Of a stretch of 64,000 bases of DNA, positions 3,260 through 53,355 are shown in pieces. This stretch comes from a virus. The stretch spans positions 1 to 64,000 of IMG/VR virus record IMGVR_UViG_3300020020_000001; one strand, written 5' to 3'. Numbering within the stretch: position 1 is the first letter of the stretch; each line of letters opens with the position of its first letter. A program made the translations under genes and the position numbers. A model generated the notes under the pieces. That model did no database searches. It saw nothing but the letters and a program-made list of their open reading frames with translations, and had not been told where the DNA came from.

Positions 3260-3657
3260 TGACGAATAGCAAAACTCGTGACGACCTAGTAGTCAAAGAT
3301 ACCTGTCCGCGCCGGCAAGAGAACCACCTCATAGTAGAAGAATTACTCGATGGTTGGCACTGGCGCGGCCAATTGCTCCATTGCACCTACTGTGGGTCAT
3401 TACAACCAGACATGCTGCTGAGTCTCATGGCCGCAAATACAGGGTGCGAGCTTGGACCCACAGACAAGAACTATAAGGTGTACGTGCGGCAACAAGGTGT
3501 CCATGTGGGCAAATTCTACTTCCAGCATTTTAGTGTAGCGAACTGCCAGCGGTTCATTGAACTTTACAACCAGAAACCGCGCACCTTCACTGTGGGTTAC
3601 CCACACCACTTTTATGTGCTACCGTTCTTCGTCGCATTGGAAGGGAGGGATAAATGA
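3259..3657 (+). CDS. Hypothetical protein (CxxCGS motif)
   Basis: Coupled ORF between TerL and portal; HCTYCGSL, TDKNYKVY, KFYFQH. Confidence 0.65.
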   Translation: MTNSKTRDDLVVKDTCPRRQENHLIVEELLDGWHWRGQLLHCTYCGSLQPDMLLSLMAANTGCELGPTDKNYKVYVRQQGVHVGKFYFQHFSVANCQRFIELYNQKPRTFTVGYPHHFYVLPFFVALEGRDK

Positions 3658-5210
3658 CGAGCGTAGAAGAAGCCGTTGCAGTTATTGAGGAAAACATTGG
3701 CTTGAAGATTGAGTCGATGAACCTCAATGAAGTGCTTAATGATGACCGCTACGAGTTAATCAACACAGTATATGACCCAGTCAATGGTTCATACATTGTG
3801 ATGGCAGAGCGTGACCCCCGGTTGTCTGTGGGTGTGGCAACGCGAGAGTTGGGTTATAGCTCGCCATCTCCGTTTACCGCGTGGACGCGCGAGGAGCGGG
3901 TTGGTGAGTTAAGAGACAAGCTTGGCATTCGCAAGTACTATGACATGAAGCGGGCCGATGGTACTATTCGTGGGGCGCTGCGCCTGCTGAAGACTCCAGT
4001 GATGGCAGCTCGTTGGTTTGTCGAGCCGGCTAGTGATTCTACTATTGACCAAAACATTGCCAAGTTTGTGCAAAAGAACCTGTTTGAGCAGCTTAATACA
4101 CCATGGCACCGAGTGCTAGAAGATGCCTTGCTCATGTGTGAGTATGGTTACATGCCGCTAGAGAAGGTGTACGGTGTTGACTCTGACGGCAGAATTATTC
4201 TAAGAAAACTAGCACCAAGACACCCGCTTGATATTCAGGAATGGCTTTACGATGCAGCCGGTGGGCCAGACGCTATTGTCATGGACCCAACCGAGGCGAA
4301 TGGCTTCGAGAATATTCTTATACCAATCGAGAAGCTGGTAGTCTTCGTCCTAGAGCAAGAAGCTGGTGATATGCGTGGCATTTCCATCCTTCGGTCAGCA
4401 TATAAACACTACTTTTACAAAGACACACTCTATAAGATTGATGCTATTCAGAAGGAACGACACGGTATTGGTGTCCCAATTATTAAGCTCCCAATGGGTT
4501 TCACTGCCGCCGATCGAGTCCTCGCGGATGATCTTGGTAGAAACCTTAGAACCAACGAGCGGGCGCACATTACGGTTCCGGCCAACTGGGAAGTACTCTT
4601 TGCCAAGTTAGAAGGACAACCGGTTGACTGTCTGCCATCGATTCAACACCATAACGATCAGATTATGCAAAACATTATTGCGCCATTCTACAACGATAGT
4701 AATGCTAAAGAAGACTCAATGAACATGTTCTACAAAGGTACCCGATACATTGCGGCGACAATTGCTGATACGATGAACCGCTACGTGATTAAGCAACTCG
4801 TAGACTTCAACTATTCTCGTGGTTCCTACCCTATTCTTCGGGCTCGACGTATCGGGGAGAATGAGGACCTGCGTACTTGGTCTTTCGCCTTCCGAAACTT
4901 GGTTGGTGCTGGCGCTATTCAACCAGATGATGAGTTGGAAAAGTTCTTACGCATCGAGCTTGACCTACCTCCAATGGACAAGGCAACGACGCGGGCCTTG
5001 CTTCAGCCACAGAACCCTGATGATCCAAACAACCAAGCTAATCCGAATGATGATGAAAAAGATGTCAACGACCAACTAAAGAATAACCACCTTTCGAACC
5101 CGACTGACACGGTTGGACCACCAAGAGTTGGTCTCCCTCGTCAGAAAACGAGTCCACCTGTGGGCCTGCCAGCAAAAAACACTGGCCGCGACAGATCTGG
5201 TGGTAATTAG
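3654..5210 (+). CDS. Portal protein (DUF935/Mu gp29-like)
   Basis: Position; motifs YGYMPLEKVY, GISILRSAYKHY, ERHGIGVPI. Confidence 0.88.
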   Translation: MTSVEEAVAVIEENIGLKIESMNLNEVLNDDRYELINTVYDPVNGSYIVMAERDPRLSVGVATRELGYSSPSPFTAWTREERVGELRDKLGIRKYYDMKRADGTIRGALRLLKTPVMAARWFVEPASDSTIDQNIAKFVQKNLFEQLNTPWHRVLEDALLMCEYGYMPLEKVYGVDSDGRIILRKLAPRHPLDIQEWLYDAAGGPDAIVMDPTEANGFENILIPIEKLVVFVLEQEAGDMRGISILRSAYKHYFYKDTLYKIDAIQKERHGIGVPIIKLPMGFTAADRVLADDLGRNLRTNERAHITVPANWEVLFAKLEGQPVDCLPSIQHHNDQIMQNIIAPFYNDSNAKEDSMNMFYKGTRYIAATIADTMNRYVIKQLVDFNYSRGSYPILRARRIGENEDLRTWSFAFRNLVGAGAIQPDDELEKFLRIELDLPPMDKATTRALLQPQNPDDPNNQANPNDDEKDVNDQLKNNHLSNPTDTVGPPRVGLPRQKTSPPVGLPAKNTGRDRSGGN

Positions 5211-45999: not shown

Positions 46000-46876
46000 G
46001 TATTTAGTTATGATGGCCAATTATCTAGATAACTACTACCGAAGTTGGGATCATAGGTGTACTCGTATGCGAGGTCAAGATCTGCTTTTACTGGAAGACT
46101 TCTCCCTCGTGGTGCACTGCCATATACCTTACGCCCACAGAGGCAGCACTTACCATGAACGTCAGTGGATTTGTGCTCGCCACTGATGTCCTCTTTGCAT
46201 GCACCATTACGATTCAGGCGCGCCTCGTGCTCCTCACGTAGACGCGCCCGGACCATTAGTTCTTCAAAGCTAATCATTCGCTGTCCCAGAGTGCCTGATG
46301 CCTGTGGGGAAAGGTTTGGAAATCACCATCTTCAAGGTCTTTACGAGACATCTTCATCATAGTTCTTAGTTGGCTACGGAGTGTCGTTCGTGCATGACCA
46401 TTAGCTTCTTTACGGTATACCTGTTCGTGCCTACCACGAGCCCAGATGTGCTGGTTACCAAGATCATTTGCCCAATAACAACAGCCACGTCCAGACCAAG
46501 TGTAGCATTCTACAACGTTAGCTTGCATGTCGCAGATGCCGCGCTCGTGGTTGTGGTTCTCTTCTCTCCACTGTGGGTTTTGCATGAGCTTAACCCAGTA
46601 TGGTTTTGTTTTGTCCGTGTTGGACATGATGCCTTTCCACGCCCTGGTCTCTCCAGGTCGTTACCTATGCATCATGTCGACCTCCCAAAAAGCTTAGCGT
46701 AAGTTGATGATGTAATCATCATAACCATGGTTAACCAAATGCAGAATGTTACTAACCTTGCACCTGGATTGACTGAGAAAAGCATAGAGATGAGGACATC
46801 AATCCACATCACTATGACCAAAATCCATAGCAACATCCGCATGATTGGATGATCTATGAATTCTCTCATAGATCAT

Positions 46877-46948
46877 CTATTTTGGCTTTGGAGGATTAGC
46901 TGGTGGTACTGGAATGATTGGCCGTGGTGGTGTAGGCGTATTAGCCAT
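46877..46948 (-). CDS. Pro-rich micropeptide MANTPTPPRPIIPVPPANPPKPK
   Basis: AAGGAG RBS, ATG...TAG. Confidence 0.6.
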   Translation of the reverse strand: MANTPTPPRPIIPVPPANPPKPK

Positions 46949-46958
46949 TTTGTTCTCC

Positions 46959-47039
46959 TTAAATGAATTTCGGTCCTGGTGCTGACCTTGGCTTCGGCTT
47001 GGGCGGTGGAGGTGGCGGAGTCGACGGTCTGTTAGGCAT
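46959..47039 (-). CDS. Pro-rich micropeptide MPNRPSTPPPPPPKPKPRSAPGPKFI
   Basis: Start overlaps the end of the upstream micro-ORF by 8 nt. Confidence 0.6.
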   Translation of the reverse strand: MPNRPSTPPPPPPKPKPRSAPGPKFI

Positions 47040-47100
47040 TTGGTTTTGGTCTTGGTGGTGGTGGCGGAGGTGGTGGAGGAGGCTGTATAGGTCTAGGCAC
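47032..47100 (-). CDS. Pro-rich micropeptide MPRPIQPPPPPPPPPPRPKPNA
   Basis: AGGAG RBS, GTG start, 10 consecutive Pro using mixed codons. Confidence 0.6.
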   Translation of the reverse strand: MPRPIQPPPPPPPPPPRPKPNA

Positions 47101-47319
47101 TTCTTCTCCTATATGGAAATGGACCGAAATATGTACTAATCTTGTGGAAGAAATCCGGCATTCGCTTGACCAGGTTGCGCCATGGTAGGCTGATGACCAA
47201 CAACAATTTGCCTTCTAGTCATCTCTTTGGATACTTGCTCAAGTTGTCCATGCGCACGTTGCATGCGCTTTCTGACTGACTTCATTTTGTTGATGTAAGA
47301 TTCACCAGCTTCTTGTACT

Positions 47320-47820
47320 TCATTCCGAAGCTGTTCCATTTGCCATACAAGTTGGTTGTATTGGTTTATGATATCTTCGTTGGCCATTGACGCTCCTAGT
47401 AGTGATATTACATCTAAAGCAGGATACAACTAGATTGCTTATATCATTATTTAACTTATCAAAGTTAAGATGATCTGATAATATACCATGTATGCCACCC
47501 CATGTAAGAGTTACACCACACCAATTGCATTCATGTTCACAATCAATGGATTCACAACCAAGTGAATTCCATAAAACCAATCTATGTTCTCTAACAACTC
47601 CATTTTGTGGACTAGCTAATGGATGATTCCACATACCACTAAGTGATACATAACCATCTGCTATGTATCTTCTTATCGGTTCTTGTGTTGGTTCTGGAAC
47701 CTTTCTTCCTCTACGTTTAAGAGATTTATCACTAGTCCAGTAATCTTTACTTTGAACATACTTGCGAGCAATGCCTTCTAAATCCACGTTTAATGTCGCA
47801 CGGATATACGAAATATTCAT
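47320..47820 (-). CDS. HNH endonuclease
   Basis: EHRLV, CNWCG, DHLNFDKLNNDISNLVVSCFRCN; AT-rich. Confidence 0.8.
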   Translation of the reverse strand: MNISYIRATLNVDLEGIARKYVQSKDYWTSDKSLKRRGRKVPEPTQEPIRRYIADGYVSLSGMWNHPLASPQNGVVREHRLVLWNSLGCESIDCEHECNWCGVTLTWGGIHGILSDHLNFDKLNNDISNLVVSCFRCNITTRSVNGQRRYHKPIQPTCMANGTASE

Positions 47821-47879
47821 TATTGCACTGCTCACGAGCACATAATACAATAGGCATGGTGTTCCTTTGTTGTACTGAG

Positions 47880-47950: not shown

Positions 47951-48409
47951 TTGCCCTACCGATTGGGCGACATGGGATTGATACTATTCAATTGTAGGCC
48001 AAACAAGTTTTAGATATTCAACTATTTTCTTACGTCCATATTCCCAAGTTCCAACGTATGAATTTGATAACCAATATTTATGCCATTCATCATCGTCTAA
48101 TAGAATTTCCATAAGACGTTCAAATCTTTCGTTTTCGTTCATGCTTGTTAGACCTCGCTTGGCTTTATTAAGTTGTAGCAGTCCTCACAGTTGAAGAACA
48201 GATCATTCTCAGGATCACGAGCCTGATCCATAGTTATAGCTCTATCACCATAGACAGCATGTCCACACATGGATTGTAAGTTACTAGCATCAGGATCTAG
48301 TACATGTGTCGTTGGCTCTATTACTTCTGTCAACTGTGGCTCCAATTGTCCTGGAGTTTCCCATTCATACGCTTCACGCCAAGCGGGGTTACTAACAAGC
48401 ATGTTGATA

Positions 48410-48535
48410 TTAACGTGGTCTAGTTGGCTTAACTGGATGTGGTGGATCCTGGCGAGTTGGCTTAATTGGTTTACCAGGAACAGGCATTGGACGTGGTTCT
48501 GGTCTAGGATTTGATGGGTTGGGTCGATGTGCCAT
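48410..48535 (-). CDS. Pro/Arg-rich micropeptide MAHRPNPSNPRPEPRPMPVPGKPIKPTRQDPPHPVKPTRPR
   Basis: TAATG translational coupling to the upstream micro-ORF. Confidence 0.62.
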   Translation of the reverse strand: MAHRPNPSNPRPEPRPMPVPGKPIKPTRQDPPHPVKPTRPR

Positions 48536-48636
48536 TAACGTGGCCTATTTGGTGGTACTGGGTGTGGAGCTGGTCTTGGCTGTGGAGGTAATGGCCTAGG
48601 TTGTGGTCTCATGGGTGGATTTACTGGATGTGGCAT
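48535..48636 (-). CDS. Pro/Arg-rich micropeptide MPHPVNPPMRPQPRPLPPQPRPAPHPVPPNRPR
   Basis: Starts 4 nt after the upstream stop; ends RPR-TAA like its neighbour. Confidence 0.62.
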   Translation of the reverse strand: MPHPVNPPMRPQPRPLPPQPRPAPHPVPPNRPR

Positions 48637-48640
48637 TCTG

Positions 48641-48920
48641 TTACCCTTTGTTTATTGGTGGCGCATTAATCGTTATGACATGATGTACTAAGGCTTCATC
48701 TTTCTTATGTTTGTTGTAACCTTTCCAAAGGGAATATGAAAATATAGTTATGTATGTTAGAGCGGACGCTACGAATCCATACTGATGTGTAACGAATCCA
48801 TAGATGAACCACAGAATGTGGCCAGCAATATTGTAGTAGGCACCAACTCTTGGATGTCTAATGTAAAACCAGAATCCAAACGCACCGTTGGCGAATAATA
48901 ACCAACTCCACCAACTATTG
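48641..48920 (-). CDS. Small PnuC-like membrane protein (start uncertain)
   Basis: WSWLL...GAFG.W, LWFIYG....QYGF..SA; the track start overlaps tRNA-Ala. Confidence 0.5.
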
Positions 48921-48926
48921 TACACG

Positions 48927-51439: not shown

Positions 51440-53089
51440 TTAGATCCGTCCTGCACTAAAGTTTGCAATGAGTGACGGTAGGTTGGCGTCGCCACCACAC
51501 ACGTCAAGCATACCACGATCCGACGGGTCGGCAATGGTGAAATCTGTGGCGGTAAGTCCAACAACAACCAACTTGGCGTCAATGCCTGTCTTCTGTCGAT
51601 ATGTACGAAGTGCCTGGAATGGGTGTGGACGACCTGCGTACGTTTCGCTGTCTGTAATGACAACGAACGTGTCTACCGCAATGTTGTTTCGTTCAGCAAA
51701 CAACATTGGTAGTGAGCAGTCTGTTGACATGAATGGCCGAGAGACGCGCTTCATCACATCGTTCAGATCCATACTTGCAGTTAGACCTAGATCGACAAAC
51801 TGGCTACCAAACCCATAAACCTGGTAGTACGGCTCAGTGCGCATGATAGTCATGGCCATAGCTGCACCAACCTGCGCGCAGTTAAGGTCAATACCCATCG
51901 CTGGTGAACCCATTGAACCGGACACATCAAGGGCGAGCATTGTGCGCTTGTTCGCTGGTTCTACATACTTGAATGCCTTGTAGAAACCTTCGTTCAGCGC
52001 CGCAACAATTACTGGATTGGTGTTCCAGTCCTTGACTCGCTGAGTTGTGTAACTATAACCGGGTGGAGGTATGTCGCCAGGCTTCTTTGAACGCCAAATC
52101 TGACCGTTCTCGTGAACTGTCAGTGCAAGAAGGTACTGGATCGGGTGTAGCTTGGTACGTGCAATCATGCTTTCAGTTGTGAGTGCTGTTGCTACCTCAC
52201 GAGTGAATACCATGTCATTGAACGCACCAATACGAGCTAGCCGCGTGATGTTACGGACAAGCGCCTGACCCTTAAGCTGACCGTTATAGAACAGCTTCTT
52301 CCATACTTCAGCATTCTTAAGAAACTGCGTAGGTAGTGCTTCCCATGGTAGGAGTGGATGATCATTCAGAACATTTAGTACCGTCTGCACATTTTCCGCA
52401 CCGGAAACACGATCGAATCCAATAAGAATATCCGACCGCTCTTCAACAGATGCCATGTTAGGTAGAGGCTTGCCAAGGATAAAGCTACCGACACTCTTGT
52501 CAATACCCACAGGGTGTGACAAGCGGAACATGTCACGGTGGGTCCAACCATCACGCTGACGATACTTCACAGCCTGGTATGCAACCTGGTCTGGTGTCTT
52601 ACGCTCATACCAGCTTGCCACCGCAGCACGCTTTGATCGACCCCAACCACCAAGTAGCTCGATGTACTGAGTAAACTGGAACAGGTGTGTCGAAATGCGA
52701 ACTACCTTGGCAAAGGCGTCCTTGTTCTTACGCTTGCCGTAAGTGAACAGCGCAGCCATCACGAAGATAGCAGTGTTGTTACGGTAGGCGCGTCCACTTT
52801 CCGAAATCTCTGTTACTACCTGCTCGACTAATTCCTCATCGCGTCCGATCATCTCAATGACGAAGTTGATGTTCTCCTTGGTGAGCGGCTTCTCCTGTAC
52901 GTAGTAGGTACCCTTGTCAGTACCAAGAATCAGGAAACGCTCTAGCCGTGTGCGATCTGAGACCTGGAAGACAAATCCACCAGCGTTGTTGACAACCTGG
53001 TCTGGACGTGCCTGCACTGTCTGTGGGGTATCCTGAATTTCCATCAGTGCTTCGGTGATGGCGTCACGGTTCTTATCTGGCTTAGACAT
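51440..53089 (-). CDS. rsr: Ro60/TROVE-domain RNA-binding protein (Rsr ortholog)
   Basis: NNAGG..F....RL.RFLILGT.KGTYY, GGWGR, KYRQRDGWTHRD, ALVRN, vWA MIDAS DVSGSM, ITDSET, IADP.D.GMLD. Confidence 0.95.
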   Translation of the reverse strand: MSKPDKNRDAITEALMEIQDTPQTVQARPDQVVNNAGGFVFQVSDRTRLERFLILGTDKGTYYVQEKPLTKENINFVIEMIGRDEELVEQVVTEISESGRAYRNNTAIFVMAALFTYGKRKNKDAFAKVVRISTHLFQFTQYIELLGGWGRSKRAAVASWYERKTPDQVAYQAVKYRQRDGWTHRDMFRLSHPVGIDKSVGSFILGKPLPNMASVEERSDILIGFDRVSGAENVQTVLNVLNDHPLLPWEALPTQFLKNAEVWKKLFYNGQLKGQALVRNITRLARIGAFNDMVFTREVATALTTESMIARTKLHPIQYLLALTVHENGQIWRSKKPGDIPPPGYSYTTQRVKDWNTNPVIVAALNEGFYKAFKYVEPANKRTMLALDVSGSMGSPAMGIDLNCAQVGAAMAMTIMRTEPYYQVYGFGSQFVDLGLTASMDLNDVMKRVSRPFMSTDCSLPMLFAERNNIAVDTFVVITDSETYAGRPHPFQALRTYRQKTGIDAKLVVVGLTATDFTIADPSDRGMLDVCGGDANLPSLIANFSAGRI

Positions 53090-53355
53090 TTCGACCCCTT
53101 TCAAAGGGATATGTTACTGTCAGTTTGATGAGATTTTTGATTGATTTCCATAGTTCTTGGCATCTTATGGTAAGTACAGATGCTATGATCATCCAACGTG
53201 GGCAGCTAACGATGAATTGTAACATCTCACCTTGTAAGTGCATACATCTGGTACACCAATCGCCATCAATATCTTCGTCGCAAGGCTGTCCATCGTGGGA
53301 TAAGTCAATTGCTTTCATGAGTTGTTGTGCTTCATAGTGGAAATTTCTCGTCACG

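Follow-up and report, generated by a model that had tools for sequence, protein, structure and literature searches.

To our knowledge, the mode of action in which proline-rich antimicrobial peptides (PrAMPs) work in the ribosomal tunnel is known only from animal immunity. The pharmacophore of the type II peptides is the C-terminal octapeptide PRPPHPRL of apidaecin (PMC11549390, PMC11347161): the penultimate arginine contacts the GGQ of RF1/RF2, the carboxylate of the C-terminal leucine contacts A76 of the P-site tRNA (PMC11347161), and residues P11, R12, R17 and L18 are nearly intolerant of substitution (PMC11549390, PMC11347161). Apidaecin genes expressed endogenously are active in bacteria (PMC11347161). 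PrAMPs in the broad sense are described as short and cationic, with a high proline content and Pro-Arg-Pro motifs (PMC11678341). A second kind of proline-rich reading frame is reported to act in cis, namely the Pro-codon leader open reading frames (ORFs) mgtP/mgtL with their EF-P-dependent coupling of transcription and translation (PMC3641672, PMC5021804, PMC8092293). Here we describe five proline-rich micro-ORFs, A, B, C, P1 and P2, encoded by a phage on the minus strand of a 64,000-nucleotide stretch of DNA (the window), which forms the first 64 kb of the complete, 80,170-bp IMG/VR record IMGVR_UViG_3300020020_000001; the record bears direct terminal repeats and has a GC content of about 46%. 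Judged from their sequences, the five are genuine small genes and, together with their homologues in related phages, make up a family restricted to this lineage, whose members are cationic (Pro-x)n micro-proteins 22–41 residues long and which is under protein-like purifying selection. The reading that we favour, though with somewhat less than even confidence, is that all five are translated and that the peptide itself is the selected product, which would act in trans on a component of the host.

The five micro-ORFs are arranged in two clusters as follows.

48636..48535, minus strand: P1, ATG at 48636 and TAA at 48537-48535; 33 residues, MPHPVNPPMRPQPRPLPPQPRPAPHPVPPNRPR; 48% Pro, net charge about +5.
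48535..48410, minus strand: P2, from ATG to TAA; 41 residues, MAHRPNPSNPRPEPRPMPVPGKPIKPTRQDPPHPVKPTRPR; 37% Pro, net charge about +7.
47100..47032, minus strand: A, with a GTG start; 22 residues, MPRPIQPPPPPPPPPPRPKPNA; ten consecutive Pro.
47039..46959, minus strand: B, whose ATG lies within the last codons of A; 26 residues, MPNRPSTPPPPPPKPKPRSAPGPKFI; six consecutive Pro.
46948..46877, minus strand: C, 23 residues, MANTPTPPRPIIPVPPANPPKPK; stop codon UAG at 46879-46877.

A preliminary description of this DNA had pointed out two overlapping Pro-Arg micro-ORFs at 48410-48636 and, with a cluster at 46.9 kb, five peptides in all. Both observations hold. The two reading frames are real and lie on the minus strand, the P1 stop and the P2 start being joined as TAATG with base 48535 in common, and A, B and C are found in the other cluster, where A and B overlap by 8 nt (ATGCCTAA). 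The PRP motifs, the PHPV motif and the common RPR-TAA end of P1 and P2 are likewise present as described, PRP occurring twice in P1, alongside RPEPRP in P2, and twice in A. Over the peptides as a whole, the Pro content ranges from 37 to 64% and the net charge from +3 to +7.

A, B, C, P1 and P2 are the only ORFs of 12–80 residues with at least 33% Pro in the entire 80,170-bp genome. Proline accounts for 46% of the codons in the five micro-ORFs as against 4.7% in the long ORFs, in which PPP occurs only twice and PPPP never. The poly-Pro runs differ only in third codon positions, including the (CCN)10 of A, and the six prolines of B use all four Pro codons; since the variation is restricted to third positions, it indicates selection on Pro codons rather than a slippage repeat. 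An assembly or frameshift artefact was also considered and is ruled out by independently assembled Logan contigs from three soil samples and studies, which cover both clusters with no substitutions and no indels, although one of the samples may be the record's own source. The reading frames are consequently not sequencing errors.

The family comparison comprises eight peptides from three genomes: the genome of the window and two of its three closest relatives, L132 and G006, whose loci were reached by anchoring on p84, the gene behind P2. L132 is a 7.7-kb metagenome contig with four matching ORFs that are about 62% identical in protein, and its genes are ordered as in the window (tRNA-Leu, Glu, Ile, Pro, Tyr, Ala ... 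p84, tRNA-Asn, p97 ... tRNA-Lys, Gln). It carries one micro-ORF, of 37 residues (MPNPHPVKPQSPPKPVPLPAPVPKPLPHPVKPTSPKR), which ends 3 nt upstream of the p84 homologue. The DNA of this micro-ORF aligns collinearly with the whole length of P1, as does the conserved upstream AACAAAGGNTAACA, and the Shine-Dalgarno (SD) region is conserved; 21 of 33 residues are identical and nearly every alternate Pro is retained. The non-synonymous rate (dN) is 0.36 and the synonymous rate (dS) 1.29, giving a dN/dS of 0.28, with 9, 10 and 18 differences at the first, second and third codon positions; for p84 of the window and L132, dN is 0.33, dS 1.77 and dN/dS 0.19. The C-terminal block PHPVKPT is the same in P2 and the L132 micro-ORF, with four synonymous and no non-synonymous codon differences. 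Because L132 has a single ORF that is collinear with P1 and yet ends with the PHPVKPT of P2, P2 looks like a tandem paralogue of P1 that was duplicated within the lineage of the window. In the direct comparison of P1 with P2, counted by hand, third-position differences are commoner, though not significantly so.

These substitutions bear on a reading at the level of RNA or DNA, according to which C-rich, G-poor, unstructured stretches are selected (for Rho loading, for example, or as spacers in a tRNA precursor) and the ORFs are by-products. The two clusters do rank first and third among the C-rich/G-poor 80-nt segments of the minus-strand RNA; the segment ranked second, at 72865 and so beyond the window, looks non-coding on visual inspection, and the 46.9-kb cluster is fairly open in all three frames. 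Against this, the CCN periodicity is strictly 3 nt and its phase switches exactly at each start and stop, the SDs stand at the right distance, and L132 conserves the start, the stop, the length and the non-Pro residues while changing mostly third positions. An RNA-level element as the whole explanation thus appears very improbable. As a separate observation, about 1.4 kb of the genome past the end of the window (72400-73800) contains no convincing ORF; several of the top C-rich/G-poor segments of the minus strand lie there (72654, 72865, 73604, 73718), and they are CA-rich and have no codon periodicity.

The other relative, G006, has a genome of 81 kb that bears terminal repeats, and it shares the most genes of all the relatives (64 of 118 ORFs have a match, at 53% identity). 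Two tandem family members, MTNPNPPYPPRDPVKPIDPRPAPNSPKPTK and MTPIDNPLPRPPKPPPPPPPKPTK, one of them with seven consecutive Pro, occupy the 195-nt spacer from tRNA-Gln(ttg) to tRNA-Ile(tat), which has no other coding content and no protein gene behind it. The ATG of the first begins immediately behind the tRNA, with no base between them; the second is provided with an AGGA site, and a small hairpin and the next tRNA follow. The p84 of G006 begins directly after a tRNA, without a micro-ORF. Because this RNA has no output other than the peptides or the act of translating them, a role purely as leader of the next gene is disfavoured.

In the alignment of the eight peptides, a start M-[PAT]-x-x-P is followed by (Pro-x)n and by P-[RK]-P-x-P-[HN], the core that is conserved best across the family; several members have a basic tail of the KPT[KR] type. 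All eight have a net positive charge, and acidic or aromatic residues are nearly absent. At the second position all have P, A or T, which by textbook rules permits removal of the initiator methionine. The copy number varies, from five in the genome of the window and two in G006 to at least one in L132, and so do the positions in the array; tandem, multi-copy diversification of this sort is more reminiscent of effector-type genes than of a fixed regulatory leader. One of these differences can be placed. The stretch from p97 to A (47101-47135, minus strand; TTCGGNCCATTTCC...GGAGAA, including the SD of A) is recognisable in L132 at 3636-3703 (plus strand), past which L132 has no Pro-rich ORFs and no TM65, the gene behind C in the window, but an unrelated gene of 120 residues. 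Since L132 keeps the flank without the block, A-B-C-TM65 seems to have been inserted or deleted as a unit behind this conserved site.

The peptides had been described as apidaecin/drosocin-like, and part of this likeness is real. They are short, cationic and Pro-rich, with Pro-x periodicity, PRP motifs, a block similar to PRPxPHP and several diversified tandem copies; their composition (37–64% Pro, +3 to +7, PRP) places them among PrAMPs in the broad sense, although composition alone does not show binding. The segment PQPRPAPHP, which had been likened to the apidaecin core, does coincide with the most conserved core of the phage family. Its position is different, however. In P1, PRPAPHP occupies residues 20-26 of 33, has one extra residue, and is followed by VPPNRPR, seven residues that lead to the end; in P2, PPHP is followed by VKPTRPR. 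The penultimate residue of both is Pro and the last Arg, while A, B and C end with NA, FI and PK. The ends found in the family are ...RPR, ...SPKR, ...KPTK, ...KPNA, ...KFI and ...KPK, those of the relatives being KPTSPKR or KPTK, and none of the eight peptides ends with Arg-Leu. Because the defining C-terminal PRPPHPRL with its Arg-Leu-COOH is absent, the micro-ORF peptides are, by sequence, not apidaecin-type.

Further differences are that the phage peptides are encoded by separate ORFs and not by a processed polyprotein, that they have 22–41 residues as opposed to about 17–20, and that they would be produced within the cell by a bacterial virus instead of being imported. With regard to the caution that low-complexity similarity can arise by chance, PRP.?PHP occurs in 3.5% of composition-preserving shuffles of P1, so that the motif by itself is weak. 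The preliminary description had read the peptides as apidaecin-type agents that trap RF1/RF2 at stop codons from within the exit tunnel and so cause readthrough or host shut-off. The activity of endogenous apidaecin genes in bacteria means that a ribosomally made peptide could in principle do this (PMC11347161), and the composition and the core resemble the apidaecin family. Nevertheless, the pharmacophore has to be the extreme C-terminus, and here the block is internal and gapped, with seven residues after it. Together with the shuffles and the lengths, this makes the apidaecin-type reading highly improbable.

The surroundings of the micro-ORFs lead to another kind of explanation, for which the following features are needed.

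48148..48402, minus strand: p84, 84 residues, Cys/His-containing; no SD; begins 7 nt past the stop of P2.
46672..46869, minus strand: TM65, 65 residues; AUG at 46869-46867; no SD; begins 7 nt past the stop of C.
46848..46877, minus strand: RNA hairpin with a perfect 12-bp stem; it begins at the final nucleotide of the C stop codon, and the AUG of TM65 is buried in it.

P1 is preceded, 7 nt upstream, by the SD-like AAAGGG (-5.0 kcal/mol, the median for the genes of this genome). A has the SD AGGAG with a 5-nt spacer (-7.3 kcal/mol, among the top 3.4% of random positions), and C the SD AAGGAG, which overlaps the stop of B (-8.2 kcal/mol, top 1.8%). P2 and B have no SD of their own and their starts overlap the end of the ORF upstream; B, with its ATG inside A, is presumably translationally coupled to A for this reason. 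The hairpin over the AUG of TM65 has a folding energy of -16.6 kcal/mol (z = -4.8), and none of 200 shuffles was equally stable. A ribosome that terminates at the end of C would need to melt this hairpin.

These features are the main grounds for regarding the micro-ORFs as cis devices, in which the act of translation is what matters. The Pro runs would depend on EF-P and on tRNA-Pro(UGG), and the outputs would be re-initiation at the SD-less p84 and TM65, melting of the TM65 hairpin by translation of C, and shielding of C-rich RNA from Rho. As in mgtP/mgtL (PMC3641672, PMC5021804) and in upstream ORFs that unmask a ribosome-binding site (PMC8092293), the ORFs are short, SD-led and Pro-rich, a hairpin at C/TM65 hides the next start, and the C-rich RNA could load Rho if it were left untranslated. 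SD-led A, with its ten prolines, and C stand upstream of TM65, and SD-led P1 upstream of p84. The runs of ten, six and seven prolines are found in a proteome with no PPPP and just two PPP elsewhere; CCA makes up 66% of the Pro codons, and the phage encodes a tRNA-Pro(UGG), which lies 0.9 kb upstream. In L132, moreover, the SD of the p84 homologue is supplied by the micro-ORF itself, whose final codons read AAG AGG.

Other observations fit a cis device less well. A leader would always precede a protein-coding target, and the pair in G006 precedes a tRNA, while the p84 of that genome does without a micro-ORF. A and B are dispensable for feeding TM65, given the strong SD of C itself. Around P1 and P2 no alternative terminator/antiterminator fold was found, the region being less structured than shuffled sequences (z = +1.2); nor was a start-sequestering hairpin found at the start of A, or any intrinsic terminator downstream. 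H, V, K, T, L and R are conserved through synonymous changes, although a sensor of Pro codons does not need them (an arrest peptide does), and tight coupling is common in phage operons and is not proof of regulation. Compared with the Pro-codon leaders, the phage ORFs also differ in lying within tRNA-flanked operons rather than in a 5' leader, in forming tandem sets of two or three, in conserving their non-Pro residues, in lacking a downstream protein gene in G006, and in the absence of a terminator/antiterminator from the regions searched. Overall, we regard the cis reading as unlikely but as the main rival. Roles in trans and in cis are not mutually exclusive.

The neighbouring membrane proteins offer a third possibility.

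48641..48925, minus strand: TM94, 94 residues, phrog_2421; directly upstream of P1; its GTG begins at the first base past tRNA-Ala.

Each cluster in the window adjoins a small multi-helix membrane protein, TM94 being upstream of P1/P2 and TM65 downstream of A/B/C, and the peptides might bind or gate these two. TM94 has 168 homologues. Its predicted structure is a three-helix membrane bundle with a predicted local distance difference test score (pLDDT) of 90, the best fold matches being SemiSWEET proteins, with weak scores (E about 0.9); the conserved residues are W6, S7, Q36, W39, Y42, Q48, G50 and F51. TM65 is by eye a two-helix membrane protein and an orphan, as no homologue of 35–114 residues was found and no Pfam or PHROG family was matched. 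Such a partnership seems improbable: the micro-ORFs of L132 and G006 have no membrane-protein neighbour, no Pro-rich micro-ORF lies downstream in 23 other viral loci with TM94 homologues, TM65 is an orphan, and the TM94 model is weakly similar to SemiSWEET and not to a SLATT effector. A scan of the Fels-2 reference genome likewise showed no Pro-rich micro-ORFs of this kind at the thresholds applied.

The same neighbours bring up the idea of debris, in which the micro-ORFs are the Pro-rich linker of a broken TM94-linker-p84 or p97-linker-TM65 gene. The C-terminal domains carried by distant relatives of TM94 are diverse and in several cases rich in Cys, and p84 shows a Cys/His pattern; in addition, the summed length of 252 residues is close to the 244-position profile of phrog_14697. 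On the other hand, TM94 is complete, because its closest homologues have 85–101 residues, and so is p84, because its 83-residue homologues share its N-terminus; a broken linker of a longer gene is thereby ruled out. The three samples are identical and free of indels, each change of the Pro frame falls on a start codon, strong SDs precede two of these starts, and in L132, which has no TM94, a single intact micro-ORF follows a tRNA and is preceded by an SD of its own. Debris is scarcely credible on these grounds. With regard to p97 (47136-47429, minus strand), the ORF of an HNH endonuclease (phrog_9443; 47320-47850, minus strand) overlaps its listed TTG start by about 110 nt; the internal ATG at 47387 (MANEDIINQ...) is the more likely start, having AGGAG in front and an N-terminus that matches the L132 homologue.

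Both clusters are embedded in a tRNA/Y-RNA array. From 42 to 60 kb the minus strand carries 23 tRNA genes, and a Ro60/TROVE gene lies at 51440-53104; in this half of the genome the coding strand is the minus strand, on which the micro-ORFs also lie. At eight of the 23 tRNAs the very next base opens an ORF of 21–94 residues that starts with ATG or GTG, never TTG, which leaves no room for a ribosome-binding site; TM94 is one of the eight.

44604, minus strand: ORF start directly after tRNA-Thr.
45847, minus strand: ORF start directly after tRNA-Gln.
48925, minus strand: ORF start directly after tRNA-Ala (TM94).
49407, minus strand: ORF start directly after tRNA-Pro.
49872, minus strand: ORF start directly after tRNA-Glu.
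51166, minus strand: ORF start directly after tRNA-Leu(taa).
53354, minus strand: ORF start directly after tRNA-Ser(tga).
55568, minus strand: ORF start directly after tRNA-His.

By our own estimate, the rate expected by chance is about 0.01–0.02 per tRNA for ORFs of at least 20 residues. Such starts are also seen in the relatives, at 7 of 29 tRNAs in G006 (where they include the p84 homologue and the first Pro-rich micro-ORF), 3 of 10 in G003, 3 of 10 in G004 and 1 of 12 in G001; in Streptomyces phage BRock no tRNA is followed in this way by ATG or GTG. As these ORFs start at the first base after the tRNA, 3' processing of the tRNA would leave a leaderless mRNA, and in mycobacteria an ATG or GTG at the 5' end is necessary and sufficient for translation (PMC4633059). 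The arrangement looks like mitochondrial-style tRNA punctuation that yields leaderless phage mRNAs, which the literature searched does not describe for phages. The resemblance to mitochondrial punctuation and to mycobacterial leaderless translation (PMC4633059), which we infer from the position of the starts, concerns the expression of the micro-ORFs and not their function.

The host of this uncultured soil phage is probably an actinobacterium, because the terminase is similar to those of Arthrobacter, Microbacterium and Mycobacterium phages, the homologues of TM94 sit mostly in high-GC viral contigs, the tRNA-Ala of the window is 93% identical to that of BRock, and the starts are of the leaderless type. 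The identity to actinophage terminases is just 36%. The term actinophage in the preliminary description is plausible, as an inference. A comparison of the window with cultured phages, covering near and distant DNA and protein matches, gave none apart from tRNAs. BRock (KX925554.1) also has a Ro60-type gene, annotated as 'RNA-binding protein', at 101751-103322 within an array of 29 tRNAs; it lacks Pro-rich micro-ORFs, yet could be a cultured stand-in for such tRNA arrays.

On the favoured reading of peptides that act in trans, the mRNAs of the micro-ORFs would be cut from a long, tRNA-containing transcript, some of them then starting leaderless at AUG or GUG. The peptides would lose the initiator methionine and exist as free, extended polyproline-II rods, which would act on a target in the host; in the genome of the window, the micro-ORFs would in addition hand ribosomes to p84 and TM65 behind them. 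The leading candidate for the target is the translation apparatus, specifically the ribosomal exit tunnel, by analogy with animal PrAMPs. This is doubtful, and binding in the tunnel would need a register other than that of apidaecin, because the C-terminal warhead is absent. Alternatives that are equally in trans are the adjacent small membrane proteins or some other host target. The fullest version of the proposal, in which phage analogues of PrAMPs are produced from micro-mRNAs of the tRNA array and reprogram translation in the infected cell from within the exit tunnel, for example by host shut-off or by favouring leaderless phage mRNAs, is quite unlikely.

Several points weigh against a selected product in trans. 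The codon alignment behind the dN/dS values was guided by amino-acid similarity, and selection on CCN-rich RNA could mimic a low dN/dS. The comparison also rests on very few sequences, because no homologue outside the lineage was found; within it, the family was found in just three of nine related genomes or fragments. A peptide that blocks ribosomes would also hit the phage's own translation, and runs of six to ten prolines hamper bulk production of a peptide and fit stalling or sensing better. In the window, the 7-nt spacing from stop to start, the SD-less genes downstream and the hairpin over the TM65 AUG point to coupling in cis. Finally, no public RNA run is listed as containing this DNA.

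The restriction to one lineage emerges from searches at several levels. No family member is present in the five more distant relatives (G001-G005) or in G007, which is 82% complete; G004, G005 and G007 are incomplete. None is present in BRock, and 80 viral loci anchored on Ro60 contain no counterpart. P2 gave no candidate in a collection of 5.8 billion proteins among those of 22–72 residues. The ESM Atlas contains P2 letter for letter, with no similar cluster found there, so that some gene caller must have called it somewhere. A DNA pattern for PHPV.P.RPR-stop returned only off-frame matches in IMG/VR, in high-GC contigs. A pattern with two PHPV motifs was set aside, as its hits in IMG/VR are 12-nt tandem repeats readable as (x-P-H/Q-P)n, which are a distinct thing. 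Repeats of this sort that read (M/V/L)-P-(H/Q)-P over 35–165 codons, starting MPHPV, were seen in twelve unrelated IMG/VR contigs with a GC content of 42–70%. The literature searched has no description of phage-encoded Pro-rich micro-proteins.

If their target proves to be the ribosome or some other host machinery, these peptides would be the first naturally phage-encoded counterparts of animal PrAMPs and would offer new peptide scaffolds that already work inside Gram-positive, high-GC hosts; action in the exit tunnel would mean a convergent, viral origin of the PrAMP mode of action. If the cis reading is correct instead, the phage would time gene expression in its tRNA array through poly-proline, by dependence on EF-P or tRNA-Pro. 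Either way, the micro-ORFs represent a conserved class of unannotated phage micro-genes that gene callers mostly miss, as the absence of P2 from the 5.8-billion-protein collection illustrates, and cationic Pro-rich micro-proteins may be a widespread, overlooked tool of phages.

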